From Armatimonadota bacterium (GTDB lineage: Bacteria; Armatimonadota; SYMT01; JACQGL01): a DNA stretch of 64,000 nucleotides. The DNA is taken from NCBI GenBank assembly GCA_016199525.1, contig JACQGL010000205.1, positions 712 through 64,711 on the forward strand. The letters are read 5' to 3'. The notes beneath the pieces were generated by a model that saw only the letters and a program-made list of their open reading frames with translations, did no database searches and had not been told where the DNA came from. Position numbers and translations under genes: made by a program. Shown piece after piece: positions 7,567 to 60,811 of the stretch; positions within the stretch are counted from its first letter, which is position 1; every line of letters starts with the position of its first letter.

Positions 7567-8385
7567 ATGTGGCGGGTGGCAGCGGCGACGCTTGTGCTGG
7601 CAGTCGTCAGCGCGAGCGCCCTCCCGGGAGCCCCCGGGGGAGCGGTGCAGGAGGTTACGGCCGACCTGATCCCGGCCGTGCCTCCGGAGCGCGTGTCGCC
7701 CCGGAACCTGGAGCGAATCACCCGCCGCTACCTGGGTACCCGCTACCTGCGGGATGCCCTCGGCGAGCAGCAGGGGCCGGATCCGGACCCCGTGTTCCGG
7801 CGGGACGGCGTGGACTGCCAGACCTTCGTTGAGCAAACCCTGGCGGAGGCCCTGGCGACCACGCCCGCGGAGGTGCGCTGCACCCTTATCCGGCTGCGCT
7901 ACCACGGCGGTAAAGTGCGCCTGGACCGCCGGTTCCACTATTGCCTCCCTGAGTGGCTGGATAATCCCTGGCCTGTGCGCGACATGACGCGCGCTATTGC
8001 CGGCCGTCGCGTCCAGCAGTTGCGGGTGACGATCCAGCGCGAGCGCTTCCTCCGGCGGCGTGGCTGCTCTCCCGAGGTGGCGCGGCAGTACCCTCCCCTC
8101 TCCGTCCGCACCCACTACATCCCATCCACCTCCGTTCCCTGGCTCCAGAGGCGCCTGCCGGACGGCGGCATCGCGGTATTTATCCTGCGGGTCCCGAAAG
8201 CTTTCGGGATGGCGGGCCACATGGGCTGGCTGTTCCGCCGTGGGAACCACGTGATCCTGCGACACGCCAGCCAGCGCCAGGGCCGCGTGGTGGATGAGTC
8301 CCTGCTCGGCTTCCTGCGCCGCGGGCAGCACCGGTTCAGAGGGCTGGTGGTTCTGCAACCGGACGTGGCCCGCTGGAGAGGGTGA
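7567..8385 (+). CDS. Secreted hypothetical protein (possibly DUF1460 / amidase-like). An alternative start is at 7480.
   Basis: Signal peptide MWRVAAATLVLAVVSASALP. No recognisable catalytic motifs. It contains one in-frame copy of the CCCGAAAGCTTTCGGG palindrome, read as VPKAFG. Confidence 0.5.
   Translation: MWRVAAATLVLAVVSASALPGAPGGAVQEVTADLIPAVPPERVSPRNLERITRRYLGTRYLRDALGEQQGPDPDPVFRRDGVDCQTFVEQTLAEALATTPAEVRCTLIRLRYHGGKVRLDRRFHYCLPEWLDNPWPVRDMTRAIAGRRVQQLRVTIQRERFLRRRGCSPEVARQYPPLSVRTHYIPSTSVPWLQRRLPDGGIAVFILRVPKAFGMAGHMGWLFRRGNHVILRHASQRQGRVVDESLLGFLRRGQHRFRGLVVLQPDVARWRG
8192..8209. repeat. Palindromic repeat copy TCCCGAAAGCTTTCGGGA (inside a CDS)
   Basis: Perfect 18-bp palindrome with an AAGCTT core. 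Confidence 0.9.
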
Positions 8386-8424
8386 ATCCGAAGGGCAAGG
8401 CACGCTGATTGGCAGAGGGAACTG

Positions 8425-8444
8425 GCCCCGAAAGCTTTCGGGGC
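8425..8444. repeat. Palindromic repeat copy GCCCCGAAAGCTTTCGGGGC (convergent intergenic, possibly a bidirectional terminator-like hairpin)
   Basis: Perfect 20-bp palindrome lying between the stops of convergent genes. Confidence 0.9.
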
Positions 8445-8450
8445 TGGTCT

Positions 8451-9908
8451 CTATCCCTCGTCCCGCGGGCCGGATCGAGGCCGCGGTTCCATCGAAGCCC
8501 GTGCGTGCGAGGCCGCCAGCTCCACGCAGATGCGATCCACCCAGATCAGGCCCAGCTGTGTCCACGCGGTCACGAGCAGGGGTTGGGAGTCGCGCAGCAT
8601 CTCATCTTCCAGATGCACTTCCAACGTCCTCTCACGGGCCTGGCCACGCGCATCCGGCAGATCCCAGGCGTTCCCGCGCCAGGTGAGCCGCAGCGGTGGG
8701 CCGGGGGGAACGAGCGGGTGGAGCGCCAGGTGGTAGGCGATTCCCGGAGAGATGGGGGCAGCGAACCGCAGGACGGCTTGGAATCGCGTGCCGTCCCGCC
8801 GCACTACCAGGCCGACCAGGTCTCCCGCGGGCACGGCGGCCCGCAAGGGCGCGTCACCGCGCGGGTAGCGGGAGCGGAACACCCCGGGCATCGCCAGGCC
8901 GTCCTGGGCCAACCCCAGCGAGGCATCCGCGGGCGAGAGCGGCGATAACTGCTCGAACAGCTCGTTCGTGCGCAAGAAGCTGTGCAGGAACCGGCCGATG
9001 CAGCGCATCTGGCTCCGGTGGCGTGCCGTGGCGCGCCGCTTGGCGATTCTTTCCTCCGCGGTGAGCGGCAGCGTTGCCCAATCGCCGTGCGCCAGGTGCG
9101 CGGGGGGGCCCAGCGGGAACTTCTCCCACCTCCCCTGCGGCACGGGCCAATCGCCATGATGAGTCAGGTAGCTGTATACGCCCCGCAATTCGTCGTCCCA
9201 GGCCCCATTGGGGCGGGCGCGGAGCGCCGCGGTAAGCAGGCAGAACGTGGCCCAGTGATCTCCGTGGTCATCCTGGGGATGAGGCGCGTAGATACGCGTG
9301 GGGCGCTCACGGCGCAGAGCTTCGGAGAGATCATCCAGCACCGCCCGGGCGCAGTACGGCGTTCCTGGCTGCCGGGCGTTCTCATACGGCACCCTGTCCG
9401 CCTGCGTGTAGCGGGAGCGGTAGGGCTGGTCGGGCGACCAGTGCGTCAACCACAGCTCGTGCAGACCACCATCGGGGTAACCAAGGAAGATGGCAGTTTC
9501 GTGCGGCAGGCCGAGTTCCGTGAGGGCAGCACGCGTCTCCTGCTGACGCACCGTTCCCAGCAGCCGGCAGGCGCGCCACAGGCCTCCCACGCCGCGCATC
9601 TCGCTGTAGGCGGCGAATGGGAAGCCATCCCCGTGGGTGAGGAACACGATCCTCACCCGCGCCCCGACGGCGACGGCGCGCTGCAGCAGACCGCCGAGGG
9701 CCAGAACCTCGTCGTCCGGATGGGGACAGAGGACGAGGAGGCGATCTTCGGGGCCGGGCGGCGAGTGAAGGGGACGATCGCCGTTGCGTGCCCGCAGGTT
9801 GGCGGCGTAAGCGCGCACCGCCGCGGCCGTCCCATAGAGCGGCGACCTGGCCACCAGTCCCACATACGCCCCCACCGGGAGGCGGACCTTCGGTCTTTCA
9901 GCCCTCAT
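8451..9908 (-). CDS. PIG-L/LmbE family N-acetylglucosaminyl deacetylase with a C-terminal extension of ~230 aa
   Basis: Motif LVLCPHPDDEVLALGG and the HxDH pattern typical of the LmbE fold. Confidence 0.75.
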   Translation of the reverse strand: MRAERPKVRLPVGAYVGLVARSPLYGTAAAVRAYAANLRARNGDRPLHSPPGPEDRLLVLCPHPDDEVLALGGLLQRAVAVGARVRIVFLTHGDGFPFAAYSEMRGVGGLWRACRLLGTVRQQETRAALTELGLPHETAIFLGYPDGGLHELWLTHWSPDQPYRSRYTQADRVPYENARQPGTPYCARAVLDDLSEALRRERPTRIYAPHPQDDHGDHWATFCLLTAALRARPNGAWDDELRGVYSYLTHHGDWPVPQGRWEKFPLGPPAHLAHGDWATLPLTAEERIAKRRATARHRSQMRCIGRFLHSFLRTNELFEQLSPLSPADASLGLAQDGLAMPGVFRSRYPRGDAPLRAAVPAGDLVGLVVRRDGTRFQAVLRFAAPISPGIAYHLALHPLVPPGPPLRLTWRGNAWDLPDARGQARERTLEVHLEDEMLRDSQPLLVTAWTQLGLIWVDRICVELAASHARASMEPRPRSGPRDEG

Positions 9909-9963
9909 TAGTCAGCTCGCCAGCAGGCGAAGTTGGCTGGCAAGCAGTGGTACAAAGATAGAA

Positions 9964-10054
9964 CGGAGCGACTGGGATTCGAACCCAGGAGGGAGCTTTG
10001 AGACCCCCTACACGCTCTCCAGGCGTGCTCCTTCAGCCACTCGGACATCGCTCC
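9964..10054 (-). tRNA. tRNA-Ser (anticodon GGA), long variable arm, CCA not encoded
   Basis: The reverse complement folds as a cloverleaf: acceptor GGAGCGA/TCGCTCC, anticodon stem CACGC/GCGTG with loop CTGGAGA, a long variable arm, and T-arm CTGGG-TTCGAAT-CCCAG. Confidence 0.85.
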
Positions 10055-10124
10055 GTATGAGGTGAGCGAGATTGTACCACGGCGCCAGAGCAGTGTCAAG
10101 CAAGCGTCGGCCCCCCGGCGAACC

Positions 10125-10703
10125 TCACCGCCCCTCTTCGCGGTCCCGATGTATCTGGCTGGGTGTCGGCCCGACCTGGTCCTGATACTTGCTTCCCGGC
10201 CGACTCCCGTACGGGCGCGCGGCCGGCGAGGTGAGCCACTGGAACGAAATCTGGCAGATGCGCATGTTCGGGTGCAGCGCCACCGGCATCTTGCCCACAT
10301 TAGAGAGTTCCAGAGTAACCGTGCCCCTAAACCCCGCGTCCACGAATCCGGCGGTGGCGTGAACCATCACCGCCAGCCGCCCGATGCTGGATCGGCCGTC
10401 CACGCGGGCCACGAGATCCTCTGGCACCTCCACGCGCTCCTTGGTTGTTGCCAGCACGAACTCCCCCGGGTGCAGCATAAACACTTCGCCGTCGGGGACC
10501 TCAACCACCTCAGTATATGCCGTTGGGTCATCCAGCCGTGGATCGATGTAGGGCTTGAGCGACGTGCGAAAGATGACGAATCGGTTGCCCAAGCGCAGGT
10601 CCACCGAGCAGGGCTGAATCTGCACGTCGATGTCTTCCAGAGGGCCGATAACGATTCGGCCCGCTTCCAGTGCCGCGCGGATGTCTCTATCGGAGAGGAT
10701 CAT
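10125..10703 (-). CDS. dcd: dCTP deaminase
   Basis: N-terminus [19 protein letters not shown], 192 aa, typical Dcd. Confidence 0.9.
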
Positions 10704-11488: not shown

Positions 11489-13507
11489 GTGTTGCGTCGC
11501 CAGAACCCGATGACTCGCTCGCACCTCGACGTGGAAGCATTTCCTTCGCCACCACCCGGCCCCGAAGGGGAGGTATCCCTCCTCGAAGGCGCCGTGCGTC
11601 ACGCCCTGTCGCTCGGCACACGCTGGCTGCTCGCGGACCAGCGGCCGGATGGCCACTGGGTGGGAGAGCTGGAGGGCGATACCATCCTGGAGTCGGAGTA
11701 CGTGCTGCTCCGCCACTTTATGGGCTGCCTGGATGCCGACCGCCTGCGCCAGCTGGGGAACCATCTGCGGCACACGCAGCTGGCGGAAGGCGGCTGGGCG
11801 CTCTACCCCGGCGGTCCTCCTAACCTGAGCGCCTCTGTGAAGGCCTACCTCGCGCTGCGCCTGGCAGGGCTGGATGCCGATCACCCGGAAATGGTCCGCG
11901 CCCGCCAGATCATCCTGCGCCTGGGCGGCGTTACGGCCTGCAACACGTTCACCAGGATCTACCTGGCCATTTTCGGCCAGTACGACTGGGACGGTACCCC
12001 CGTTGTGCCGCCGGAACTGGTGCTGCTGCCCCGCTGGAGCTACCTTAACCTGCACGAGATTTCCTCCTGGTCCCGCGCCATCCTGGTGCCACTGGCGATT
12101 ATCTGCGCTCACCGGCCCTATTGCCCGTTGCCACGCGGGATCAACATCGACGAACTGTTCGCGGGAGGGCGGCACGGCCCTCATCTCCGCCTGCCGTGGG
12201 ACCGGCGCCGCCTTTCCTGGCGCAACTTCTTCCTGCTCCTGGATCGCTGCCTGCACTGGGGCGAACGGAGCGGCTGGAAGCCGTGGCGCCGCCGTGCCCT
12301 CGCCGTGGCGGAAAAGTGGATGCTTGAGCGCTTCGCTGATAGCGGCGGCCTGGGCGCCATTTTCCCTCCCATCGTCAACGCCCTGATGGCCCTCCGCTGC
12401 CTCGGCTACCATGACGATGACCCCGCCGTCCGCTCCCAATGGCGAGAGATCGAGGCGTTCGAAATTGTGGAGGAGGATCGCATGCGGCTGCAGCCATGCG
12501 TCTCCCCCATCTGGGATACCGCCCTCGCGCTGCTGGCGCTCACGAACGCCGGAATCCCGCCCGACGATCCGACGCTGGTGCGGGCGATCGACTGGCTGCT
12601 AACAAAGCAGACGCAGAAGCGCGGGGACTGGTCCGCCAAGCGCCCGCGCGTCGAACCGGGTGGCTGGTACTTCGAGTACGAGAACGAATTCTACCCCGAC
12701 GTGGACGATACCGCGGTGGCGCTGATGGCGCTGGCCCGTATCCACCATCCCGACCAACGGGCCGTCTCCGACGCTGCGCGCCGCGGCCTGGAATGGGTAT
12801 TTGCTATGCAATGCCGCACCGGCGGCTGGGGCTCTTTCGATGTGGATAACGACCGCATGATCTTCGCCCAGATCCCGTTCGCAGACCACAACGCGATGCT
12901 CGATCCCGCCACCGCGGACATCACCGGTCGCGTGCTCGAAATGCTGGGCCATTACGGCTACGATAAGCGCGACCAGCGCGTGGCTCGCGCGGTGCGCTTC
13001 CTGAAACAGGAGCAGGAGAAAGACGGCTCGTGGTTTGGCCGCTGGGGCGTGAACTACATCTATGGCACCTGGCAGGTGCTGAAGGGTCTGCGGCTTATCG
13101 GCGAAGATATGACCGCTCCCTACGTCCGCCGCGCCGTTGAATGGCTGCGCGCGGTGCAGAACCCGGACGGCGGGTGGGGTGAATCGTGCGACTCTTACGA
13201 TGATCCAGCGCTCAAGGGCATCGGGCCCAGCACGGCGTCCCAGACGGCCTGGGCCGTGATGGGGCTGATCGCCGCGGGCGAGGCTCCCTCCGACGCGGTC
13301 CGGCGCGGCGTTAATTTCCTGGTCCGCACCCAGACTCCGGACGGCGGCTGGGACGAGCCCTGGTTCACCGGCACTGGTTTTCCCAGGGTGTTTTACCTGC
13401 GCTACCACCTGTACCGCAACTACTTCCCCGTGTTCGCGCTGGGAATGTACGCGCACGAGATCGGGATGAACCGGAACAATAAGGCAGCCGTAAATGGCCG
13501 CCAGTGA
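11489..13507 (+). CDS. shc: Squalene-hopene cyclase
   Basis: DVDDTA catalytic motif, QW repeats, ~670 aa. The start could be the downstream ATG at 11510. Confidence 0.92.
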   Translation: MLRRQNPMTRSHLDVEAFPSPPPGPEGEVSLLEGAVRHALSLGTRWLLADQRPDGHWVGELEGDTILESEYVLLRHFMGCLDADRLRQLGNHLRHTQLAEGGWALYPGGPPNLSASVKAYLALRLAGLDADHPEMVRARQIILRLGGVTACNTFTRIYLAIFGQYDWDGTPVVPPELVLLPRWSYLNLHEISSWSRAILVPLAIICAHRPYCPLPRGINIDELFAGGRHGPHLRLPWDRRRLSWRNFFLLLDRCLHWGERSGWKPWRRRALAVAEKWMLERFADSGGLGAIFPPIVNALMALRCLGYHDDDPAVRSQWREIEAFEIVEEDRMRLQPCVSPIWDTALALLALTNAGIPPDDPTLVRAIDWLLTKQTQKRGDWSAKRPRVEPGGWYFEYENEFYPDVDDTAVALMALARIHHPDQRAVSDAARRGLEWVFAMQCRTGGWGSFDVDNDRMIFAQIPFADHNAMLDPATADITGRVLEMLGHYGYDKRDQRVARAVRFLKQEQEKDGSWFGRWGVNYIYGTWQVLKGLRLIGEDMTAPYVRRAVEWLRAVQNPDGGWGESCDSYDDPALKGIGPSTASQTAWAVMGLIAAGEAPSDAVRRGVNFLVRTQTPDGGWDEPWFTGTGFPRVFYLRYHLYRNYFPVFALGMYAHEIGMNRNNKAAVNGRQ

Positions 13508-13522
13508 AACGGAAAAACAGCG

Positions 13523-14527
13523 ATGAGATTTCCGCCGCACATCACCGTCGATCTGATCCGCTACCAGGTGGCCAGGGCGCTCCGCGGGGAGCGCCGCTAC
13601 CCGATGGTGCTGATGCTGGAACCGCTTTACACCTGCAACCTGGCGTGTCTGGGCTGCTCGGTGGAGCGCCACACCGGCCGACTCCAGGACAGGCTGCCCC
13701 TGGAAGCCTGCCTGAAGGCGGTGGATGAATGCGGCGCGCCGAACGTCTCCCTCTGCGGCGGCGAGCCCACCATCTACCCCGAACTGAAAGAACTGGTGGA
13801 GGGCATCATTGCGCGGCGTCGGCATATCTACCTGTGCACCAACGCTCTCCTGCTCGATCAGAAAGTCTACGGTATTATCCCGCCTCATAAGCGACTGACC
13901 CTCAACATCCACCTCGACGGAATGCGTCCCACGCACGATTTTGTCTGCGACCGGGCGGGCGTATTCGATAAAGCAGTGGCAATGATCCGCGAGGGCAAGC
14001 GCCTGGGCTACCACGTGGTCACCAACACCACCGTCTTCAAAGATACGGATATGGAGGAGATCGAGCGGCTGTGCCAGCTGCTCACCGATATCGGGGTGGA
14101 TGGGATGCTCGTGACCCCTGGCTACGAGTATGAATCGCTGCTCGGCCGGGACCTCTTCCTCCACCGTGAGGAAACGCACGAGAAGTTTCGCCGCGTCCTG
14201 GAACTCTCCCGGCGCTACCGGCTGACCTCTACGCCGCTATTTCTGGAGTTCGTGGCCGGCCTGCGCGAGCTGCCCTGCTCCCCCTGGAGTACCGTCACGC
14301 TCACGCCAAGGGGCTGGAAGGGCCCGTGCTACCTGATCGGCCTGAAGTACTACCCCACCTGGGAGGAGTTCTGGAACGGAGTGAACTGGGAGTACTGGGA
14401 GAGCCGGCAGGATGCGCGCTGCCAGAACTGCAAGATGCACTCGGGGTTCGAGGCTTCTGCCGTCCGCGAGGCCAGCCGGAGCGTGCGTGAGCTGGGGCGG
14501 CTGCTGACCTGGAACCTGCTGGGGTAG
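13523..14527 (+). CDS. hpnH: Hopanoid biosynthesis radical SAM protein HpnH (adenosylhopane synthase)
   Basis: CNLACLGC radical-SAM cluster motif, plus YLCTNALLL, SPLFLEF and C-terminal CQNCKMHSGFEASAV, which are characteristic of HpnH. Confidence 0.9.
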   Translation: MRFPPHITVDLIRYQVARALRGERRYPMVLMLEPLYTCNLACLGCSVERHTGRLQDRLPLEACLKAVDECGAPNVSLCGGEPTIYPELKELVEGIIARRRHIYLCTNALLLDQKVYGIIPPHKRLTLNIHLDGMRPTHDFVCDRAGVFDKAVAMIREGKRLGYHVVTNTTVFKDTDMEEIERLCQLLTDIGVDGMLVTPGYEYESLLGRDLFLHREETHEKFRRVLELSRRYRLTSTPLFLEFVAGLRELPCSPWSTVTLTPRGWKGPCYLIGLKYYPTWEEFWNGVNWEYWESRQDARCQNCKMHSGFEASAVREASRSVRELGRLLTWNLLG

Positions 14528-14542
14528 CAGCACCGGAATGGC

Positions 14543-15598
14543 ATGGCTGTCCTGGTCACAGGGGGTACCGGCTTCATCGGCAGTCACATCGTCCGCGCGC
14601 TCATCGAGCGCGGCGAACGGCCCCGCTGCCTGGTGCGACGCGATAGCCGCCTGGAGAACCTGGCGGGCCTGCCGGTGGAGCGGATCGAAGGGGACCTGAC
14701 TGATCCCGCTTCCCTGGCGCGGGCAGTGCGCGGCGCCGATCAAGTCTTTCACGCCGCCGCCGACTACCGCCTCTGGTCGCGCGATCCGGCGCAACTCTAC
14801 TGCGTGAACGTGGCGGGCACGCGAGCATTGCTCCGTGCGGCGGCAGAGGCGGGGGCGAAGCGCATCGTCTACACGAGCAGCGTGGGGGCCCTGGGCATCC
14901 CCGCGGACGGCTCGCCGGGAACGGAAGAAACGCCGGTTGCTCTGGCCGATATGGTCGGCCACTACAAGCGCAGCAAATTCCTTGCGGAGCAGGAGGCGCT
15001 GCGCCTGGCCGCGCAGGGCGCGCCGGTGGTCATCGTGAATCCGAGCACGCCTGTGGGACCGGGGGACATCAAGCCGACGCCCACAGGCCAGATCATCGTC
15101 GATTTCCTGCGCGGTCGGATGCCCGCGTACGTGGATACGGGGTTGAATCTGGTGGCGGTGGAGGACGTGGCGGTGGGCCACCTCCTGGCCGCGGAGCGGG
15201 GTCGGGTGGGCGAGAAGTACATCCTGGGTTGCCGTAACCTGACGCTGCGCGAGACGCTGGAAATTCTGGCGACAGTGACCAGCTTACCTGCTCCCCGGGT
15301 TAGAATACCGTACCATGTTGCCTGGATGGTGGGCGCGCTGGACACGCTCATCAACGGCACGCTGCGGGGACGACCGCCCCGCGCGCCGCTGGAGGGGGTG
15401 CGGATGGCGCGCAAGAAAATGTTCTTCAGCGCCGAGAAAGCGGTCCGCGAGCTGGGATTGCCCCAGTCCCCGGTGGAGCAGGCGCTGGCGCGCGCCGTTG
15501 CCTGGTTCCGCGAGCATGGCTATGAGCGAGATACCGCACCGGAACCCCCGGAGGCGCGTGTTAAGCAGGGCGCCGGCGGCGGAAAGGGTCGCTTATGA
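14543..15598 (+). CDS. hpnA: NAD-dependent epimerase/dehydratase, hopanoid-associated sugar epimerase HpnA-like
   Basis: Rossmann motif VLVTGGTGFIGSH. Sits between hpnH and ispH, and has an ATGA overlap with ispH. Confidence 0.7.
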   Translation: MAVLVTGGTGFIGSHIVRALIERGERPRCLVRRDSRLENLAGLPVERIEGDLTDPASLARAVRGADQVFHAAADYRLWSRDPAQLYCVNVAGTRALLRAAAEAGAKRIVYTSSVGALGIPADGSPGTEETPVALADMVGHYKRSKFLAEQEALRLAAQGAPVVIVNPSTPVGPGDIKPTPTGQIIVDFLRGRMPAYVDTGLNLVAVEDVAVGHLLAAERGRVGEKYILGCRNLTLRETLEILATVTSLPAPRVRIPYHVAWMVGALDTLINGTLRGRPPRAPLEGVRMARKKMFFSAEKAVRELGLPQSPVEQALARAVAWFREHGYERDTAPEPPEARVKQGAGGGKGRL

Positions 15599-16470
15599 AG
15601 GTTTACCTGGCCAACGAAGTGGGCTTCTGCTTCGGAGTGAAGCGGGCCATTAATATGACCCGCCAGGCCCTGGCAGAACACAATCACGTCTTCATTCTCG
15701 GTGATGTGGTCCATAACAAGACAGTCACCTCCGAGCTGGAAGCCCGCGGACTGGTGAAGATGGATGATATCGATGGCGTCCGCGGCGGCACAATGGTTAT
15801 CCGTGCCCACGGCCTTCCAGGCGCGCAGATCCAGGAAGCTGAGGAGCGCGGCCTGAGCATCGTGGATGCCACCTGCCCGATCGTCGCTCAAGCGCAACAG
15901 GCCGCCCGCGAGCTGGAAGAGCGCGGCTGCCAGGTGGTCATCATTGGCGACAAGGACCACGCCGAGATTAAGGGGATCATGGGCGCCCTCAAGCGCCCCG
16001 CCCTGGTGGTGGACTCCATAGAAGAACTGCGCCAGGCGAAGCTGGATAAGATCCTGCTGCGCAAGGTGGGGGTCATCTTTCAGACCACCCATTCCTTCCA
16101 GCTCTGCCAGCAGATCGTCAACGAACTCATTATGATGGCCAAGGAGGTGCAGGTCATCAACACGATCTGCCGGCCGGTGCGCAACCGGCAGATGGATGCG
16201 GTGGAGCTGGCGTCCCGGGTGGATGTGATGATTGTGGTGGGCAGCCATTCCAGCGCCAATACCCTGGAGTTGAAGCACCTCTGCCAGAGATACAACCCGC
16301 GCACAATCCATATCGAGAACGCTGACGAACTCGACTTGTCCCAGTTTGAAGGTGTAGAAGCGGCGGGTCTTGCGTCTGGCCTCTCCACTCCTCCCGATCT
16401 GGTAGAGCAGGTGAGGGCGCGGCTGATCGCCTGGGACCAGCAGCGACGCGAATTGGTGAACAGCGAATAG
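15595..16470 (+). CDS. ispH: 4-hydroxy-3-methylbut-2-enyl diphosphate reductase (IspH/LytB)
   Basis: N-terminus GFCFGVKRAI, typical IspH length and motifs. Confidence 0.9.
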   Translation: MKVYLANEVGFCFGVKRAINMTRQALAEHNHVFILGDVVHNKTVTSELEARGLVKMDDIDGVRGGTMVIRAHGLPGAQIQEAEERGLSIVDATCPIVAQAQQAARELEERGCQVVIIGDKDHAEIKGIMGALKRPALVVDSIEELRQAKLDKILLRKVGVIFQTTHSFQLCQQIVNELIMMAKEVQVINTICRPVRNRQMDAVELASRVDVMIVVGSHSSANTLELKHLCQRYNPRTIHIENADELDLSQFEGVEAAGLASGLSTPPDLVEQVRARLIAWDQQRRELVNSE

Positions 16471-16524
16471 GGCAGGACGAACAGACGGGGGAGTGAACGC
16501 ACGCGGTGGCGGCTTGCTTGGGAC

Positions 16525-17334
16525 GTGACCAGCACTGCCACCCTGGTCCGGTTCATTCTTTTATTCCTGCTTCGTTCTTTGAACCCCGTGAACCCCATCG
16601 CCATTGTTACCGCGGTGCCGCTCGAGTGCGCGCCTATTCGCCGACGGCTCGCGAAGCAAGGCATCTGGCGGAGTGCACAAGAGATCTGTTCGGGTCTGGC
16701 GGGGCCGGTGGTGTTTCCTCGCGGGTGGCTCGGGGGCATCCCCGTGGTAGTTGCGTGTACCCGTGCCGGGGGCCGCAACGCGCTGTGGGGCGCCGAGCAG
16801 CTGCTCAGCGTCTGGAAGCCCCGCGCCATCATCGCCGCGGGGCTGGCGGCCGGCCTCGCCCCCGACATCCGGCGCGCCGACCTGGTCGTGGCGACGGCGG
16901 TACGCTCTGGCGAGCGCACCCTACGCTGCTGGCCGGGTCCCGAGGTCGAGTTTGCCCGCTACGGCCCCCTGCTGCACAGCGAGAAGGTGCTGATCGACCC
17001 CAGCGAAAAGCGCGCCCTCGCCGCTACCGGCGCCCTGGCCGTCGATATGGAATCCGCGGCGGTGGCCGAGGTCGCCCTTGCCGCAGGGGTTCCGTTTGCC
17101 GCTGTGCGTGCTGTCTCCGACGCCGTGGACGATCCCCTGCCTCTGGATTTCAACCGCTGCCGCACCCCCAATGGTGACATCTCCCCCCTGCGCGTGGTAC
17201 TGCGCCTCGCGCGCCAACCACGCGCGCTTCCAGGGCTGCTCCGGTTTGCGCGCCGCTGCCATGTCGCGACGTTCTCGCTCGCCGAATTCCTGGCGGCGTG
17301 GCTGCCCGGCTGGGCATCTTCCCTGCCCACCTGA
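16525..17334 (+). CDS. hpnG: Hopanoid-associated phosphorylase HpnG (PNP/UDP phosphorylase family). The start is uncertain.
   Basis: Nucleoside-phosphorylase fold motifs (IAIVTAVPLE, VDMESAAVAEVA) in hopanoid-cluster context. Confidence 0.7.
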   Translation: MTSTATLVRFILLFLLRSLNPVNPIAIVTAVPLECAPIRRRLAKQGIWRSAQEICSGLAGPVVFPRGWLGGIPVVVACTRAGGRNALWGAEQLLSVWKPRAIIAAGLAAGLAPDIRRADLVVATAVRSGERTLRCWPGPEVEFARYGPLLHSEKVLIDPSEKRALAATGALAVDMESAAVAEVALAAGVPFAAVRAVSDAVDDPLPLDFNRCRTPNGDISPLRVVLRLARQPRALPGLLRFARRCHVATFSLAEFLAAWLPGWASSLPT

Positions 17335-17376: not shown

Positions 17377-18813
17377 ATGCACATGCAGGCACGCGGAGAC
17401 ACGGGGATAGAGAGACAGAAAGAAAGCGAGATAGAGGGGCAGAGGGGCAGGAAACCCGGATGCGCCTTCTGCCGTCGCTCTGTATCTATCCGTCTCTCCC
17501 TCTCTTCTTTGTGCCTGGCGGGCACGCTGCTTCTCTCGGCCGCCGTCCCCAATGCGTTCGGGACACAGGCGCCGAAGCCGCTCTCGCTTGAGGAGAGCCT
17601 CGCCCAGGCGATGCGGGCCAATCCCGCCCTGGAGGCCGCCCGGCACCGCCGGAACGCCGCCCGCGTGGAGGCGGAACGCCAGCGCCCCGCTCTACGGCCG
17701 GAGGTCAATATCGTCGGCTCCCAGCTGCTCCGCGGCCCCGAAGTGACCTTTCCGCGTGGGGATGACTTGGCCACTATCGAGCCTCATTCACGGAGCCGAT
17801 TGTCGGTGGAGGTCGAGCAGCCGCTCTACCAGTTCGGCGCGGGCAGCGCCGCCAGCAGCCGATCCAAGGCCCTGGCGGCGGCGGGCGAGCAGGAGTTCCA
17901 ACGCGCACAGTTGGACCTGGCGCTGGACGTGAAGCGGGCCTATTTCGAGCTGTTATACACCCAGATGGCCGAGCGAGTAGCCGCGCAGGCGCTGGACCTG
18001 GCCCGCGAGCAGCAGCGCATCACCGCCGCCCTCCTGGAGCGGGAGCGGGTGGCGCGGCTGGAGCTGCTGGAAGCGGAACGCGGTGTGGCGGAGGCGGAAG
18101 CAGCCCTCGTCGGCGCCCGGAACGGGGCGCTCCTCGCTCGAGGGGAGCTGAACCGGCTGCTTGGCCGCCCGGTGGGCGCCACGCTGGCCATCACCCCGAT
18201 GACAAACCTGCCCCCCGAGCCGCCGCCGACCGAGCAGCTCCTCCCCGAGGCGCTCCGCGAGCGCCCCGAAGCCATAGCGATGGAGACCGGTATCCAGTCG
18301 GCGGAGGCGGGGGTGCGCCTGGCGCGGGCGGAGCGGCTCCCACGTGCTTCCCTCCAGGGGGGCTACGATCTCCAGACACCTTCCGCCTTCGTGCCGCGCA
18401 GCTCCTGGCGGGTGGCGGTGGAGATCACCGCCCCTCTGTTCGAGACGGCGCGCATACGATACAATGTCCGCGAAGCGGAGGAGCAGCTCGCCGCCTTGCG
18501 TAGCGAGCAAGAGGCCCTGGCGCAGGGCATTGCCCTGGAGATCCACGCCGCGCGGCTGGCAATGGACGAGGCGGGAAAGCGCCACGAGCTGGCCCTGCGG
18601 ATGGAGGCCGCAGCGGCGGAGGCGCAGCGCCTGGTCCAGCTGCGGTTCGAGCTGCTTCGCACCACGCCGGCCGAATTGGCAGGCGCGCGGCTCGCCCTCT
18701 CACGCGCACAGCTGGAGGGCGCGCGGGCGTTCGCCGATGTCTGGATCGCCCGGGCGCGCCTGGAGCGCGCTCTGGGGGCGCCGCTGCCGCCGCAACCTTC
18801 GGCAGTTGAATAA
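17377..18813 (+). CDS. TolC-like outer membrane efflux protein. The start may lie downstream of the annotated ATG.
   Basis: Signal-peptide-like segment LSLSSLCLAGTLLLSAAVPNAFG followed by the coiled-coil repeats typical of outer membrane factors. A purine-rich tract precedes it. Confidence 0.75.
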   Translation: MHMQARGDTGIERQKESEIEGQRGRKPGCAFCRRSVSIRLSLSSLCLAGTLLLSAAVPNAFGTQAPKPLSLEESLAQAMRANPALEAARHRRNAARVEAERQRPALRPEVNIVGSQLLRGPEVTFPRGDDLATIEPHSRSRLSVEVEQPLYQFGAGSAASSRSKALAAAGEQEFQRAQLDLALDVKRAYFELLYTQMAERVAAQALDLAREQQRITAALLERERVARLELLEAERGVAEAEAALVGARNGALLARGELNRLLGRPVGATLAITPMTNLPPEPPPTEQLLPEALRERPEAIAMETGIQSAEAGVRLARAERLPRASLQGGYDLQTPSAFVPRSSWRVAVEITAPLFETARIRYNVREAEEQLAALRSEQEALAQGIALEIHAARLAMDEAGKRHELALRMEAAAAEAQRLVQLRFELLRTTPAELAGARLALSRAQLEGARAFADVWIARARLERALGAPLPPQPSAVE

Positions 18814-18948
18814 TCCGGCGGCGTGGCTGCTGTTCAGCCTCAAGATCCTACTTCCGCTGGAACGCACGGGGTCTGGAAGTAGGAGCAAGAGCACGGTGGG
18901 TAAGGCGGCGGTGGCCTTCCGGAAGCCCCGACTCTTCGGGCCGAGGAG

Positions 18949-18972
18949 CCCTCCCGAACGCTTTCGGGAGGG
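18949..18972. repeat. Palindrome-family variant CCCTCCCGAACGCTTTCGGGAGGG (intergenic hairpin)
   Basis: 10-bp arms with a 4-nt centre, and the same CCCGAA..TTCGGG core. Confidence 0.7.
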
Positions 18973-19026
18973 CATTCGGGACTGTGCTGGTTCATTTAGA
19001 CGACTGCTCAAGGGCTTTTCTTCTCT

Positions 19027-38448: not shown

Positions 38449-38743
38449 ATAACCGTTCTGTTGCGCCGATGCAATCGGATATCTCCGCCGTTCCCACGGT
38501 GCAAAAGCACAGCCGCCCTGACGCTCTTGCCGCATCAATCGTGCGCTGTTCCCGCTGGGGCGCGGCGGCAGAACCAGGTATGCTGAAGCTGGAGGTGGGG
38601 GAAGAGGAACTACGGGGCGCGTGCCGCCCCCAGCGCTCCCCGCGGCCCCGCCGGAACCCTCTTCCCGTCCTGAGCCGGGGAGCATAGCGGAGAGATAACG
38701 GGAGATACAGTAGCACAGTAGAGACGTCGCAGGGAGGACAAGA

Positions 38744-39522: not shown

Positions 39523-39557
39523 AGAACCAGTTCCGGAGCTGCTCCGGAACTGGTTCT
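39523..39557. repeat. 35-bp perfect inverted repeat AGAACCAGTTCCGGAGC-T-GCTCCGGAACTGGTTCT
   Basis: 17-bp arms around one central nucleotide. Operator-like or cruciform-capable. Confidence 0.9.
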
Positions 39558-54288: not shown

Positions 54289-54638
54289 GGGGGCGATGGG
54301 TATCGACAAAGGCGGATAGCGGCGGCAGTTGCGAGCCGAGGCGCCGCTGGCCTCGTAAAAAGCGGCAAAAAACAAACGCCAACACTGGCACGTACGCTTA
54401 CGCTGCCTAATTAGTTAGGGAGCGCGCTTCTCCAGGGCCGGGCCGGGAGCCCGAAGAGAGGCGACGACAATCCTGGCCGCCCGCGTGGGTTTCACCCGCG
54501 AGCCCACGTGCGGTAATCGCGGGCTGGCGCGTGGCCGGTTTGCCGATGGAACGGCGCGCGCGAGACTTAAACATCGGCTACGCTCGTAGGCGCTACCGCA
54601 CGCACCCTTTGGACCCGGGTTCAATTCCCGGCGCCTCC
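54289..54638 (+). ncRNA. ssrA: tmRNA (ssrA), with tag-peptide ORF GCC..TAA encoding ANTGTYAYAA
   Basis: 5' end GGGGGCGATGGGTATCGAC pairs with 3' end CGCCTCC-A. tRNA-like 3' domain GGACCCGGGTTCAATTCCCGG. Internal CCTCGTAAAAAGCGGCAAAAAACAAAC GCCAAC... closely parallels E. coli tmRNA. Confidence 0.85.
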
Positions 54639-54649
54639 ACTTTTCCGCT

Positions 54650-54675
54650 CGCGTCCGGCTCGCCGGACGCTTTTT
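54650..54675 (+). terminator. Rho-independent terminator after ssrA
   Basis: GCGTCCGGC-tcg-GCCGGACGC followed by TTTTTT. Confidence 0.8.
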
Positions 54676-54713
54676 TATGCCCCAGACGTCCCGACGTTGT
54701 CGGGAGGGGCCCC

Positions 54714-56330
54714 ATGCTACCCGCCCGGCAAGCGTCCCCCACCCGGGAGGCAGAGGTGCGCTGGATCGTGGGGAACGCGCGACGCTGGGGCTGGTACTGG
54801 ACGTGGCTGAGCCTCTGGACGCTCATCTGCTGGACGCTCATCTGTGCGGGCGCTCCCGCCTACGGCGCCCGAAGCGGTTCCCGGGATGGCCCGCGACTGC
54901 TCAGCCTCACGGTGGATATCAACCCCGGCGTGACCTGTGTGCGGCTGCGCTGCTCGGCGGCGGTGGAGCAGCCCACCTGGGGTCGGCTTCGCGATCCCGA
55001 ACGGGTGTTGCTCGACGTGCCACGGCTCCGCTGTGAGGGGCTGGAAGAAGATCTGCCGATCGCCGCCGGGGGCATCCGCCGGGTGCGCTTCCTCCCCTCG
55101 GATGGCGAGGGGGCCCGCGTGGAGATCGAGCTGGAGCGCCGCTGGGAAGTGCGCCTGGCGACCGCTGAACGCGGTCGCCAGGTGTCCCTGGAGTTCACAA
55201 CGACCGGGATCCCCGCGCTGGAGCCGCCTCATACCGCAGGCGAGGAACCAGGGACACCAACCGGCCTCCCCTGGCAATCCGCCGCGCCCGAGCTGCCCGC
55301 GCCGCCATCATCCCCCACGCAACCGGAAGCGCCCATCGTTCCTCCCGTGCCGCCCACCCGGACCGAGCTGCCCGAGGCGCCGCGTGCATTGCCGGCGCAC
55401 GTCCTGTCAGTGGAAGTAAAGCGGGACGGACGTGTCGCCGAGGTGGTCATCCACACCAGCCGCGGGGTCCGCGCTTCCGGCTACACGCTGGCAGGGGAGC
55501 GGCCGCGGTTCTACGTGGATCTGGAGCACACCACCCTGGGGGGCACGGTGCTCCCCGCCGTGGTTCCAGGACCGGACCTGCTGACGGTGCGCGCGGGCGA
55601 GCGTCTGGACGATCCGCCCACCACTCGTATTGTGGCCGACCTCGCCTCGGGTGCCGTGGCGCAGCTGGATGCCGACGAGGACGCAGGCCGCTACCGTATT
55701 CGCATCATTGCGCCCGCGATCCGACCGCCTGCGCCCCAGCAGCTGGGCGTCGTGATTGCCCTGGACGCCGGCCACGGAGGAGAGGACTCGGGCGCCATCG
55801 GCCTCACGGGCCTGATGGAAAAGGACGTTACGCTGGACATTGTTCTCCGCCTGCGCCGGCTGCTGGAAAAGGCGGGCTTCGAGGTCGTCCTCTCTCGTGA
55901 CCAGGATACGACGCTGCGGCCGGCAGATCGCGCCGCCTGGATTCGTGCCGTCCGCGCCGATCTGCTCGTCAGCGTACACTGCGATTCTATTGACGACCGA
56001 CCGGAGGTCACCGGCAGCTCCACCTACTTCCGACAGGATCGCGCCGGAGCGCGCGGGCTGGCGGACAGTGTGCAGCTCCGGCTGCGGGAGGCCATCGCGC
56101 TGCCGGATCGCGGCGTTCAACCGGATACCGTGCTCTACCCGCGCAGCGGCCTCTACGTGTTGCGCCATTCGCCCCGACCCTCCGTGCTGGTGGAGACCGG
56201 CTTCATCAGCCATCCTACCACCGAGCAACGCTTCCGCGATCCGGAGTTCCGCGAGCGGATCGCCCAAGGAATCGCCGCCGGAATTCGCCAATACGTCCTT
56301 GCCGGCGGCCTGAAGGAAGTCCGCCGCTGA
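54714..56330 (+). CDS. N-acetylmuramoyl-L-alanine amidase (AmiC-like: AMIN domain(s) plus Amidase_3)
   Basis: C-terminal VIALDAGHGGEDSGA amidase_3 signature. Trp-rich TM anchor. The ORF extension back into ssrA was rejected. Confidence 0.8.
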   Translation: MLPARQASPTREAEVRWIVGNARRWGWYWTWLSLWTLICWTLICAGAPAYGARSGSRDGPRLLSLTVDINPGVTCVRLRCSAAVEQPTWGRLRDPERVLLDVPRLRCEGLEEDLPIAAGGIRRVRFLPSDGEGARVEIELERRWEVRLATAERGRQVSLEFTTTGIPALEPPHTAGEEPGTPTGLPWQSAAPELPAPPSSPTQPEAPIVPPVPPTRTELPEAPRALPAHVLSVEVKRDGRVAEVVIHTSRGVRASGYTLAGERPRFYVDLEHTTLGGTVLPAVVPGPDLLTVRAGERLDDPPTTRIVADLASGAVAQLDADEDAGRYRIRIIAPAIRPPAPQQLGVVIALDAGHGGEDSGAIGLTGLMEKDVTLDIVLRLRRLLEKAGFEVVLSRDQDTTLRPADRAAWIRAVRADLLVSVHCDSIDDRPEVTGSSTYFRQDRAGARGLADSVQLRLREAIALPDRGVQPDTVLYPRSGLYVLRHSPRPSVLVETGFISHPTTEQRFRDPEFRERIAQGIAAGIRQYVLAGGLKEVRR

Positions 56331-57964: not shown

Positions 57965-58950
57965 GCCGCCGACAACGCGAGCTACCCCTGGCCCAGGGAG
58001 AGGCGTGGGAAGTGGACCTGCGGGAACTCCCTATTCCCATCCGGGGAGAACTCGGCTTGCCGCGGGTCCTCCTGGGGGTGGTGGGCGGCGCCGTCGTGGG
58101 CGCCGAGGCGCTCTCCGCCGGAGACGAGGTGGATGCGCCCGCCATACTCGCAAAGTGGACGAAGGCTCCTGCCATCGGCAAGCCGCGTCGGCCCGAGCGG
58201 CTCCGCGTGCGGGACCGCTCCCTCCGGGAGGCACTGCGCGAGTGGGCCGCGGCGCAAGGGATCGCGATTACTGCGGCGCGACGGCTGCCCGAGATAGACG
58301 AGGCGTTCCGCGACCTGGAGACCTTCCTCACCCAGGCGGGGTTTCCCGGCTACGCGCCCCGAACGCCCGAGCAGGAGGCGGCGGTGGAGGCGTTCTTCCG
58401 CGCCGCGGCGGCATTCTACGAAGCGGCTCCCTGGCGGTGGTTGACAGATTCAGATCCGCTGGCCCTCCAGTGGGAGGGAGAGCCGCAACCGCAATATGCC
58501 GCGGTAATGGGGGCGGGCGGCGAAACCTACGGACTGGCACTCTACAGCAGTTGGGAGGCTCTCCAGGCGACCTACGATCTCACCACAGCGGAAGACGAGG
58601 AGGATCTGCGGCACGTCGTCGAGACGATCGAGTCGGTGGCGGTTACCTACGAAGATCTGGGAAGCTTGCTGCCTGCCGCCATGGAAGAGATGCAAGAGCA
58701 CCGCTGGCCGCTGGCCGATCCCACGGCCTATCCCATCGCGCTCCGTAGCGGGCCGCAGGCGGGCGAACTGGCTCCGGAAGAGCTGGGGCCGCTCACCGTG
58801 GCGCTGGAGGCGGTGCAGTGCTTTGCCACGCAATACAGCCGGCGGCTCCGCTCGCGCCGCCGGCCTCTGGTCCAGCCGATGACAATCCAGACGCCGAAGG
58901 GTCCCCGCGGCGTCACTATCCGCTACCCGGTCGGCGAGGAGGCAGACTGA
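57961..58950 (+). CDS. Conserved hypothetical protein (329 aa), translationally coupled to rdgB
   Basis: ATGA overlap and acidic globular composition. No recognisable domain. Confidence 0.5.
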   Translation: MSRRQRELPLAQGEAWEVDLRELPIPIRGELGLPRVLLGVVGGAVVGAEALSAGDEVDAPAILAKWTKAPAIGKPRRPERLRVRDRSLREALREWAAAQGIAITAARRLPEIDEAFRDLETFLTQAGFPGYAPRTPEQEAAVEAFFRAAAAFYEAAPWRWLTDSDPLALQWEGEPQPQYAAVMGAGGETYGLALYSSWEALQATYDLTTAEDEEDLRHVVETIESVAVTYEDLGSLLPAAMEEMQEHRWPLADPTAYPIALRSGPQAGELAPEELGPLTVALEAVQCFATQYSRRLRSRRRPLVQPMTIQTPKGPRGVTIRYPVGEEAD

Positions 58951-59113
58951 ACCGCGGCGCAAGCGGCCGGTGGCGCCCGAGGAGCTGATCATCTCGCTCC
59001 CTCCGGAAGGCAGGAGCCCGGCATCCACCCAGGGGCAAACCCGTGCCGCGACCTCCTGGGCGCGCACCGGGCTGTTCCCTGATGTGTCGAGGGCCGAGGC
59101 CAATCCGCCGGCG

Positions 59114-60811
59114 TTACTGGCAGTAGATCCACTGCGACGCCGCCGCATCCAGCCCGTGCACGCCCCGCAGCTCCGTAGGGGCCGTCACTACGGGACCGGT
59201 GGGGAAAAGATCGATCTCGCTCTCGCCCCCCGGCGCCCAGCGCAGCCGGCGGGAAGTGCCAGGCAGTGGGATCGAGCCGCCCTGGGGCCCGGACCGGCTC
59301 TCCGCCGTCCGAACAGAAGCGCCCGCACCATCCAGCCGCCCATCCCCCCGCTTGATCCAGAGCCGGTAGCGGAGCACGCCGTCTGTGATTCGTAGGGGCT
59401 GAAGCGCCCCGAACCAGTCCGGCCCCACGCGGATCAGAACCAGCCAGCCAATGCGCGCCCGCACCCCCTCTCCGGCCCGCGGCGTCTCGAAAGCTTTCGG
59501 GACTTGTTCACCCGACGCAGCGCCCGGCAACTCCCGCCGCTCGGGCGTGAGCGCCGCCTGACCCCTGGGGCCGGGGGGACCAGCAGCGCCCACATTACCG
59601 CTCGGTGCCGCTGGCGCAGCCGCGCCCCGCAGGCCGTCCGGCAGCGGCGCCGGGGACATACCGCCGGCCCCACTCCCGGTGAACTCGGAATCGTGGAGGG
59701 GTTCCCGCCCTTTCCGCGCGCTGGATTCCTCTGCCGATGCCCCTTCGGGCGCTGCCGGAGTCCGCGATCGGTTGAGGATCAAACGGTCGCCATCGGGTGA
59801 GGGCTTTGCCTCAAACTCCTTCTCTGGCAGGGAACCGAAGCGCGGGCTCCAGACCTCACTCCGCCCCGAAAGCTTTTGGGACCCGACGCTGGTCATCTGC
59901 CGCTGGCCGGCGACCTGCGGTTGCGCGGGGAGCGGTCGCTCCACGGGCGGAGGCGCCTGGGCCATCCGGGGAGCGGTCACGCGGAGCGCCACGCCGTTCC
60001 CCGCTGGTTCGATAACCGCGCCCGTCTGTTCGGCCATCTTTTCCAGGGCAAACCACAGTGGCGCGTCCCGGGCCTGCAGCGAGACACGCGCCTCCGGCGG
60101 CGCCTCCACGTGCACGGGCACATCCGCGGCCTCTACCAGCTGGCGGGCGACGGCCCGCAGGGGCTCCTGCCGGAACACCACCGTGACCGGCCGCTGCAAG
60201 GCGGCCAGCAGCGCGGGGGAAAGATTTTCCTCTGGCACAGCCGCCGCCGCGGAGCGTGCCTCGGCGTTGCTAGCCGGCCGGCGGGGCCGGGGTCGCAGAG
60301 GATGGCGCGGGGCCACGGGAGCCGGCGGTGACACAGGTTGCGGCTTGAGGACCGTCTTGTGAGGCCCTTGTTTACCCGCCGTCTTCGAACTGTGGATGGG
60401 CGGCGGAGATAGGGTCGTTTCCGGAAGCGGAACGCTGACTCCGGGCAGCGCGGGCACGCGGGCGTGGAGCGAGCGCTCCCCCACCGGCGGGGACACGCCG
60501 CGCCCCAGGAGCAGGAGGAAGGCCGCCGCCGCTGCCGCCGGCACCAATGCCGCCGCCGGCCAGCCCCACCGGAAGCGGCGCGCGGGACGATCCTGCGGCC
60601 GAACGCGCGCGTACACAGCGTCGAGCATCCCGGGCGGCGCGGGGTGAGGGGCGACGGAGCGCAGGGCCCGCTCCGCGCACGCCAGCGCTTCGATCTGCGC
60701 GGCGCACGCCGGGCAACCCGCCGCGTGGTGCCGCAGCGCCTCCCCGTCCGCCGGCGACAGCGTCTCGTCCAGGTACCTCTCAACCGCTCCGGCGAAATCC
60801 CTACACTTCAT
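59114..60811 (-). CDS. Anti-sigma factor (zf-HC2 type) with a TM helix and a long Pro/Ala-rich periplasmic domain
   Basis: N-terminus CRDFAGAVERYLD..AGCPACAAQIEAL (zinc-finger anti-sigma). It overlaps the upstream ECF sigma gene. It contains palindrome copies at 59484 and 59865. Confidence 0.7.
   Translation of the reverse strand: MKCRDFAGAVERYLDETLSPADGEALRHHAAGCPACAAQIEALACAERALRSVAPHPAPPGMLDAVYARVRPQDRPARRFRWGWPAAALVPAAAAAAFLLLLGRGVSPPVGERSLHARVPALPGVSVPLPETTLSPPPIHSSKTAGKQGPHKTVLKPQPVSPPAPVAPRHPLRPRPRRPASNAEARSAAAAVPEENLSPALLAALQRPVTVVFRQEPLRAVARQLVEAADVPVHVEAPPEARVSLQARDAPLWFALEKMAEQTGAVIEPAGNGVALRVTAPRMAQAPPPVERPLPAQPQVAGQRQMTSVGSQKLSGRSEVWSPRFGSLPEKEFEAKPSPDGDRLILNRSRTPAAPEGASAEESSARKGREPLHDSEFTGSGAGGMSPAPLPDGLRGAAAPAAPSGNVGAAGPPGPRGQAALTPERRELPGAASGEQVPKAFETPRAGEGVRARIGWLVLIRVGPDWFGALQPLRITDGVLRYRLWIKRGDGRLDGAGASVRTAESRSGPQGGSIPLPGTSRRLRWAPGGESEIDLFPTGPVVTAPTELRGVHGLDAAASQWIYCQ
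59484..59501. repeat. Palindrome copy TCTCGAAAGCTTTCGGGA (1 mismatch), in-frame in the anti-sigma CDS
   Basis: Encodes QVPKAFETP on the minus strand. Confidence 0.8.
59865..59880. repeat. Palindrome copy CCCGAAAGCTTTTGGG (1 mismatch), inside the anti-sigma CDS
   Basis: Core family match, in a different reading frame. Confidence 0.75.

Follow-up and report, generated by a model that had tools for sequence, protein, structure and literature searches.

In this study, we identified a family of very short palindromic repeats in a 64-kb stretch of DNA from an Armatimonadota bacterium (assembly GCA_016199525.1, contig JACQGL010000205.1; this whole stretch is referred to below as the window). The palindrome YCCCGAAAGCTTTCGGGR occurs six times in the 64 kb with zero to two mismatches, where 0.01–0.02 copies are expected. 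It is a local family of tiny hairpin-forming elements of the form YCCCGA-loop-TCGGGR, which is dispersed across many bacterial phyla. In other phyla, the hairpin, a small GIY-YIG nuclease gene, and tRNA genes are tightly associated. The best overall explanation is a dispersed hairpin resembling repetitive extragenic palindromic (REP) elements, which would be spread by nuclease-triggered patch repair and survive inside genes; we hold this explanation with about as much doubt as confidence. The initial annotation of this stretch had already proposed a family of very short palindromic repeats in intergenic and coding DNA that reflects neither a protein motif nor oligonucleotide bias, and our data agree with it on these points. 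That the repeat is not private to this genome, and that it is tied elsewhere to GIY-YIG and tRNA genes, goes beyond that annotation.

The 16-mer CCCGAAAGCTTTCGGG is found exactly at positions 8193, 8427, and 36385, and with one mismatch each at 18953, 59486, and 59865. Dinucleotide shuffles of the window expect 0.02 such copies, and none of 100 shuffles reached six, in line with the earlier view that chance does not account for the recurrence. The 18-mer TCCCGAAAGCTTTCGGGA is exact at 8192 and 36384, has one mismatch at 18952 and 59485, and has two mismatches at 8426 and 59864; a search with a 12-mer core returned the same six places. A weaker 18-mer match at 17546 (three mismatches) is probably due to chance. 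Among palindromes of at least 12 nt, this one alone recurs within the window, and the sole 14-mer exceeding three occurrences is part of it. The segment 8191–8213 is the reverse complement of 36380–36402 and is identical to it over 23 nt (GTCCCGAAAGCTTTCGGGATGGC), so that two unrelated proteins have the peptide VPKAFGMA in common. The stem YCCCGA/TCGGGR with a loop of 2–10 nt is exact in the copies at 8192, 8426, 18952, and 36384, and is decayed in the two remaining copies. The loop of the window copies is AAGCTT, TCCCGA ranks second by frequency among 6-bp hairpin stems in the window, and the density of the family is approximately 10 per 100 kb. An explanation based on the HindIII site or restriction was rejected because AAGCTT is unremarkable outside the repeats: the window has seven sites against 5.4 expected, and five of the seven are inside the repeats.

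Four of the six copies are located inside genes. The perfect 18-mer at 8192–8209 lies in the gene of an AmiA-like (DUF1460) protein (7480–8385, plus strand; Pfam PF07313; 100% identical to MBI3911745.1) and encodes (V)PKAFG. The other perfect 18-mer, at 36384–36401, lies in the gene of a GAF/HisKA_3/HATPase_c histidine kinase (36253–38685, minus strand), where (V)PKAFG(M) replaces the G2 box of the ATP lid; the response regulator of this kinase is encoded at 35523–36242. The gene of a zf-HC2 anti-sigma factor (59114–60811, minus strand) carries the two decayed copies, TCTCGAAAGCTTTCGGGA at 59485–59502 (one mismatch), encoding VPKAFE, and CCCCGAAAGCTTTTGGGA at 59864–59881 (two mismatches), encoding SQKLSG in another frame. 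The partner extracytoplasmic function (ECF) sigma factor is encoded at 60808–61446. Three of the four coding copies are in one common frame. Read directly, the 18-mer is translated as SRKLSG, PESFR, or PKAFG, and there is no stop codon in any frame of either strand. The coding contexts were thus as the initial annotation had given them, and its coordinates were right to within one base, with 36383–36400 becoming 36384–36401 and 59484–59501 becoming 59485–59502.

Comparison with homologs suggests how the in-gene copies arose. At the site where the AmiA-like protein of the window has RVPKAFGM, 20 homologs with 28–71% identity are two residues shorter (RARGG-M or KPGI-V), and in the codon alignment GTC CCG AAA GCT TTC GGG has taken the place of GCC CGC GGC GGG. 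All 42 orthologs of the histidine kinase (51–64% identity) keep a G2 box of the form G-x-G[HRY]G[LFV]-x-N, and the window protein alone has G-VP-KAFGM-A-N. The change in the kinase amounts to an additional 6 nt (two residues) plus approximately five substitutions, which destroyed the GHGL motif; the box reads AFGM because of the palindrome, and the kinase may be impaired or a pseudokinase. In the two perfect coding copies, 12–15 nt of ancestral sequence were exchanged for 18–21 nt with a net gain of two residues, and conserved residues were overwritten. Neither is a clean 18-nt insertion, since both events are net +6 nt, and no target duplication accompanies them. The imperfect copies in the anti-sigma gene lie in a poorly conserved linker and left the length unchanged compared with the only two full-length homologs; the VPKAFE site corresponds to QVAEAHS in a 42%-identical homolog. 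The clean six-residue coding insertions that had been envisaged are therefore not what the alignments contain, but the check it had proposed, whether orthologs are free of the in-gene copies, came out in its favor, and these copies are lineage-specific. The alignments identify both perfect coding copies as derived patches and not as conserved protein motifs.

The remaining two copies are intergenic and have longer stems owing to additional flanking pairing. The perfect 20-mer GCCCCGAAAGCTTTCGGGGC at 8425–8444, a C..G variant, lies in a 65-nt spacer between the convergent AmiA-like and PIG-L genes, and its hairpin extends over 8416–8452. In relatives, this spacer is missing: the two genes abut or overlap there, and no palindrome is present. 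The 26-nt near-palindrome GCCCTCCCGAACGCTTTCGGGAGGGC at 18948–18973, which has one central mismatch and had been reported as a hairpin at 18949–18972, lies between two genes of a resistance-nodulation-division (RND) operon, encoding an outer-membrane efflux protein (17377–18813) and a membrane-fusion protein (19027–20670). Its predicted fold energy is −29.6 kcal/mol (z −5.4). For 8416–8452, the plus-strand RNA is predicted to fold better (−24.9 kcal/mol, z −5.1) than the minus-strand RNA (−16.5 kcal/mol), an asymmetry that arises from G-U pairs. Because of this strand-asymmetric fold, the models suggest that the intergenic copies are used to some degree as RNA hairpins. No T-run of the kind found in intrinsic terminators follows the intergenic copies at 8427 and 18953 (the four other copies are in genes); T-runs do follow some copies in other phyla (loci L091 and L034). 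The copies in the window have neither target-site duplications nor terminal repeats, and Rfam 15 has no family covering the motif, either in the window or in 33 loci.

Two further hairpins are possible members of the family. One, TCCCGACGTTGTCGGGA at 54689–54705, shares the 6-bp stem but has another loop, and is located 47 nt downstream of the transfer-messenger RNA (tmRNA) gene and just upstream of an amidase start. The other, TCCCGATTTCTCGGGA at 29661–29676 (fold z −3.4), is in a 465-nt intergenic region between flavin reductase and PALP-enzyme genes. Approximately 0.6 TCCCGA/TCGGGA stems of this kind are expected per window by chance. Both hairpins could be due to chance, and we call them only possible members because the excess loses significance when the stem is relaxed to 5 bp (TCCCG..CGGGA; seven observed against 3.8 simulated).

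In approximately 84 kb of DNA available from the nearest Armatimonadota, whose host genes share 60–71% amino-acid identity with those of the window, the 16-mer has no match even at three to four mismatches, and there is only one weak TCCCGA stem match. The site is absent at the orthologous positions of these relatives. Its absence from near relatives argues, at the sequence level, that the family was gained or expanded in the lineage of the window.

Searching species-representative genomes for exact copies of the 16-mer returned at least 116 loci in other phyla; the flank and ORF (open reading frame) counts given here refer to the matches listed. Taxa among them include Bacteroidota, Verrucomicrobiota, Nitrospirota, Cloacimonadota, Ignavibacteriota/Chlorobiota, Balneolales/Balneolaceae, and a candidate phyla radiation bacterium, and the identical 18-mer also occurs across phyla. 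Except for a lysyl-tRNA synthetase fragment, the 116 listed loci have no DNA-level relationship to the window. The 16-mer is found in isolate genomes as well as in metagenome-assembled genomes (MAGs), with diverse flanks, and also in ten viral contigs, six of which have C..G flanks. Among 125 exact 16-mers in the matches listed, 73 are flanked by T..A and 45 by C..G (118 in total), and none by A..T or G..C. These are exactly the two variants present in the window, and chance or generic hairpin selection would not give such a pattern. Of the same 125 listed copies, 87 lie outside long ORFs, and the flanks of many are complementary to each other. A further 47 YCCCGA/TCGGGR members with other loops are present in the same 804 kb of sequence, against 0.6 expected, and 24 of these are more than 1 kb from a seed copy. 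The density in the listed loci (approximately 3–6 per 100 kb) is comparable to REP abundance. In two pairs of similar loci from related genomes (L012/L044 and L058/L075), the outermost pair is T..A in one and C..G in the other, a compensatory change that keeps the pairing. By ORF coordinates, two Bacteroidota copies (L112, position 6276, and L018, position 851) are apparently within long ORFs, and that in L112 is seemingly in the PKAFG frame, as are three coding copies in the window.

Clustering of the ORFs around the motif revealed that only generic ABC transporters and one family of GIY-YIG ORFs recur. The GIY-YIG ORF (80–98 amino acids), which overlaps the motif or lies within approximately 260 nt of it in six loci, is the sole recurrent nuclease-type neighbor. 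It consists of a GIY-YIG catalytic domain (Pfam PF01541), and the nearest solved structures are the UPF0213 proteins 1zg2 and 1ywl; NCBIfam has no specific family for these proteins. To our knowledge, stand-alone UPF0213 GIY-YIG proteins of approximately 80 amino acids have no established function. In the reverse direction, a metagenome search with an alignment of two GIY-YIG protein sequences returned 80 loci, 57 of which contain the hairpin with stem TCCCGA/TCGGGA. Of the 116 hairpin hits in these loci, 57 follow the gene at a distance of at most 150 nt (typically at +7 to +45), 44 precede it by no more than 300 nt, and only 15 have other positions. When all 4096 6-bp stems were counted in the metagenomic loci, TCCCGA ranked first with 101, and the next unrelated stem had 20. 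The stems are invariant between loci, while the loops, 2–10 nt in length, vary between loci and usually agree inside one locus. The exact 18-mer of the window directly follows the GIY-YIG ORF in L047 and L083, and in L166 it begins 19 nt past the GIY-YIG match (16 nt past the ORF).

These loci have a characteristic anatomy. An intact tRNA-Asp, tRNA-Ala, or tRNA-Gly gene is followed by one or more units, each ending in a terminator and each composed of the GIY-YIG ORF and a partial copy of that tRNA in which the hairpin takes the place of one arm. Copies of the Asp and Gly types have lost the T-arm in this way, and those of the Ala type the anticodon arm; L171 additionally has a hairpin where the D-loop would be. 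The flanks of 51 of 77 hairpins recur in the intact tRNA of their own locus, and in the Ala type the stop codon of the ORF is the TAG of the tRNA-like D-arm. The 18-mer of the window is the Ala/Asp-type hairpin of L047, L083, and L166. Arrays of tRNA genes or tandem partial tRNA copies with hairpin-replaced arms are found in L013 (1300–2280), L047 (1–560), L082 (5050–5350), and L171 (1550–2480), and ARAGORN reads one hairpin-bearing partial tRNA as a tRNA with the four-base "anticodon" AGCT. A search of 8 million full texts, with incomplete coverage, gave no description of the sequence or of a GIY-YIG/hairpin/tRNA system, and a 2006 survey of GIY-YIG proteins does not mention such a hairpin system. 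The solo copies differ from these loci in that no general link to tRNA genes was found: only six of 135 copies are within 300 nt of a tRNA, and most solo copies in other phyla have no tRNA flanks.

We propose a mechanism in which a Slx1/YhbQ-like GIY-YIG nuclease of the UPF0213 type spreads the solo copies. The GIY-YIG protein, as the only conserved neighbor, would recognize the conserved stem as a hairpin or cruciform, because the length of the loop is free. The nuclease would read the stem, break the DNA at hairpin-prone sites, or both, and repair of the break would copy the hairpin from another copy by short-patch, microhomology-guided conversion. In the tRNA copies and the two window genes alike, a hairpin of 16–21 nt replaces approximately 8–17 nt of the target, and the ancestral AmiA site, which already reads CCCG..CGGGA, may have provided such microhomology. 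Hits in genes would be survivable and persist, even over conserved residues, because 18 nt make six codons without a stop codon in any frame. In intergenic DNA, copies would acquire additional pairing from their flanks and probably function as hairpins, in RNA or in DNA. In this genome, the nuclease would be encoded elsewhere; we infer the link here because hmmsearch detected no GIY-YIG ORF in the 64-kb window.

That absence is one of several points that weigh against this mechanism. The GIY-YIG gene is present in only six of approximately 126 exact-16-mer loci (up to 8 kb of sequence each, or up to 15 kb for viral contigs). No tRNA-like flanks surround the window copies, while most hairpins adjacent to GIY-YIG genes sit in tRNA fragments. 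The CCCG..CGGGA of the ancestral AmiA site is equally expected if selection built the palindrome there, the stem could be conserved for reasons other than recognition by the nuclease, such as RNA processing or control over how the GIY-YIG gene is expressed, and no transposition or conversion event was observed.

A host-selected site built in place by mutation, that is, a protein binding site (an operator or a parS/matS-like site) or a useful RNA hairpin (a terminator or stabilizer), is the alternative that survives best, although we consider it improbable. It would account for the covariation of the T..A and C..G flanks in the paired loci L012/L044 and L058/L075, for the long strand-asymmetric RNA helices of the intergenic copies, and for the partial palindrome at the ancestral AmiA site; the convergent gene orientation and the weak sign change of the GC skew near 36 kb, as at a terminus, also fit it. 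However, selection for a site would have had to bear the costly loss of the kinase G2 box (GHGL to AFGM with two additional residues), where an indel and approximately five substitutions came at once, and to produce 23 identical nucleotides in two unrelated genes. A binding protein common to many phyla would be required to explain why all of them have one 18-mer, but the relatives of this very lineage lack the site. A loop of 2–10 nt with a preserved stem does not fit a duplex dyad of fixed spacing, the lack of a T-run after the intergenic copies speaks against a terminator, and no association with partition or regulator genes is found in the window.

Somewhat less probable still is a classical REP or REPIN, or another transposase-driven element, mobilized in trans by a Y1 transposase (RAYT or IS200-like) or other transposase, with the GIY-YIG association being incidental and due to a shared tRNA-proximal preference. 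The initial annotation had called the family REP- or MITE-like (miniature inverted-repeat transposable element), and the description as a short dispersed hairpin repeat stands: the copies form hairpins, number approximately 3–12 per 100 kb, and have extended stems where they are intergenic, and their general layout, with hairpins on both sides of the gene they belong to, is the hallmark of RAYT. Its MITE part does not stand because target-site duplications and terminal repeats are lacking, nor does the classical REP part. The flanks of the copies in the window and of the listed copies in other phyla have no GTAG or CGTC tetranucleotide tag, and no RAYT (Y1 transposase) gene is found within the window or among the recurrent neighbors of the 126 loci. 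Moreover, four of the six window copies are in coding DNA, target nucleotides were replaced and not duplicated, and the hairpin-bracketed gene encodes a GIY-YIG nuclease (57 of 80 loci).

The initial annotation had offered as an alternative a DNA uptake or recognition sequence and had raised an association with competence or restriction genes. Biased uptake together with recombination would then have enriched such a self-recognition sequence throughout the genome. In agreement with this idea, the oligomer is short and over-represented, and coding DNA tolerates it, mostly in one frame. Known uptake sequences (DUS and USS) are non-palindromic 9–12-mers present approximately once per kb, in contrast to an 18-bp palindrome at approximately one per 10 kb; the window has neither competence nor restriction genes; and species-specific self-recognition is incompatible with finding one identical sequence in Bacteroidota, Verrucomicrobiota, Nitrospirota, and others, so we regard this alternative as very unlikely. 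Chance, oligonucleotide bias, a conserved peptide motif, or a sequencing or assembly artifact, for which only the high G + C content of the window could be cited, has a negligible probability in view of the shuffles, the normal AAGCTT frequency, orthologs without the peptide, preserved reading frames, and the occurrence in isolate genomes and MAGs with diverse flanks. An artifact of the 454/linker type was rejected because the sequence differs, the frames are kept, and isolate genomes carry the repeat.

The window is ordinary chromosomal DNA of an Armatimonadota bacterium with a G + C content of 65–70%, and its proteins include ones 100% identical to MBI3911745.1, MBI3911769.1, and MBI3911784.1 from an Armatimonadota MAG. 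It encodes two RND efflux operons, a hopanoid cluster, lysyl-tRNA synthetase, PdxST, MetK, two-component systems, an ECF sigma/anti-sigma pair, amidases, and tmRNA; no transposase, integrase, partition, competence, restriction, or GIY-YIG gene was found in the 64 kb. Genes are mostly on the plus strand up to approximately 35 kb and mostly on the minus strand from 35.5 kb, and the cumulative GC skew is maximal at 32–36 kb, a convergent pattern around 36 kb as expected at a replication terminus. The tmRNA gene (54289–54642, plus strand; tag peptide ANTGTYAYAA) is followed by a terminator and then by the TCCCGA-stem hairpin at 54689–54705. Because the mechanically called ORF 54531–56330 overlaps the tmRNA gene, an amidase start at the ATG near 54715 is more likely. 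ARAGORN predicts a tRNA-Ser(GGA) gene at 9963–10055 (minus strand), which is absent from an Rfam gathering-threshold scan of the window. The hopanoid-type cluster (11489–17334) encodes squalene-hopene cyclase, a radical-SAM/DUF3463 (HpnH-like) protein, an epimerase, LytB/IspH, and a nucleoside phosphorylase-like protein.

Two other repeats were observed in the window. An inverted repeat of approximately 19–21 nt, ACTCCCGTACGGGCGCGCG (core CCCGTACGGG), occurs at 10202–10222 and 29744–29764, 19.5 kb apart; one copy is approximately 150 nt upstream of tRNA-Ser, and the other is 85 nt from the TCCCGATTTCTCGGGA hairpin in the same 465-nt intergenic region. A 35-nt perfect palindrome at 39523–39557 (AGAACCAGTTCCGGAGC T GCTCCGGAACTGGTTCT), located between the genes of an LTXXQ protein and a HAMP-HisKA kinase, is unrelated in sequence to the TCCCGA repeat.

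Under the proposed nuclease-triggered patch repair, the GIY-YIG gene and the hairpin could constitute an undescribed, phylum-spanning selfish system, namely a hairpin-reading nuclease welded to tRNA genes that writes 16–21-nt patches by break repair into tRNA arms and conserved coding motifs and is thus a functional analog of REP/RAYT on another fold. We put this forward tentatively and consider it somewhat more doubtful than patch repair itself, although the chance that the pair of nuclease and hairpin represents a new class is substantial. Should the link be real, RAYT would not be the sole basis of dispersed hairpins in bacteria, and a second, unrelated nuclease family would have evolved the same lifestyle in many phyla. 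The link would also provide a testable function for the very common orphan family of UPF0213/YhbQ-like GIY-YIG proteins and account for unusual pseudo-copies of tRNAs and for the tandem tRNA fragments of Bacteroidota and their relatives. An 18-nt selfish sequence that overwrites the ATP-lid G2 box of a kinase would be a clear case of mutational drive beating purifying selection. Annotation calls for caution here, since a short peptide shared by unrelated proteins, as VPKAFGM is, can be the footprint of a DNA element.

The closest known system is the REP/REPIN-RAYT system of Proteobacteria. A gene bracketed by its own hairpins is a RAYT hallmark (PMC3116915, PMC2817692). Both systems have short dispersed hairpins, for which tens to hundreds of copies per genome may be estimated here, a small nuclease gene between copies of its own hairpin, conserved stems with variable loops, and extragenic copies that probably act as RNA hairpins. 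The bracketed gene here is a GIY-YIG (UPF0213) gene and not an HUH/Y1 transposase gene, however, and the GTAG/CGTC tag is missing. In addition, genes contain some of the copies, the home locus is tightly joined to tRNA genes, and the stem is common to several phyla, whereas REPs are lineage-specific. The hairpin-reading nuclease TnpA of IS200/IS605 is small and reads subterminal DNA hairpins rather than duplex sequence, and an enzyme of this kind would account for a stem that is conserved while the loop is free to vary. It has another fold, and its elements insert beside a tetra- or pentanucleotide without target replacement and are not known to leave 18-nt solo copies. MITEs also differ, being 50–500 bp and not 18 bp in length; the present repeat has no terminal inverted repeats or duplication, and target bases are replaced.

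Phage T4 SegB is a free-standing GIY-YIG homing endonuclease in a tRNA gene cluster (PMC13096335). It resembles the present loci in having a GIY-YIG gene among tRNA genes, with partial or tandem duplications of the tRNA region alongside, and in spreading by break repair and not by transposition. Unlike the proteins described here, which consist of a catalytic domain of approximately 80 amino acids only, Seg proteins have approximately 200 or more amino acids and a DNA-binding domain. We know of no conserved hairpin of Seg enzymes and of no seeding of dispersed solo repeats by them. Palindromic selfish repeats that lie in-frame in genes and are translated include the Rickettsia palindromic elements (RPEs), the mitochondrial GC clusters, and the PstI palindromes of Neurospora, the last of which is also an 18-nt, double-restriction-site palindrome. 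The RPEs are longer (100–150 bp) and the mitochondrial elements are organellar, and for none of the three do we know of a link to a repeat-bracketed GIY-YIG gene or to tRNA arm replacement. HIP1 of cyanobacteria (GCGATCGC) is likewise a palindrome over-represented in coding and non-coding DNA. It differs in being 8 bp long, present approximately once per kb, confined to cyanobacteria, unable to form a hairpin on its own, and without a bracketed nuclease gene. The hairpin repeat described here belongs to none of REP/RAYT, T4 SegB-type homing genes, RPEs, or mitochondrial GC clusters.

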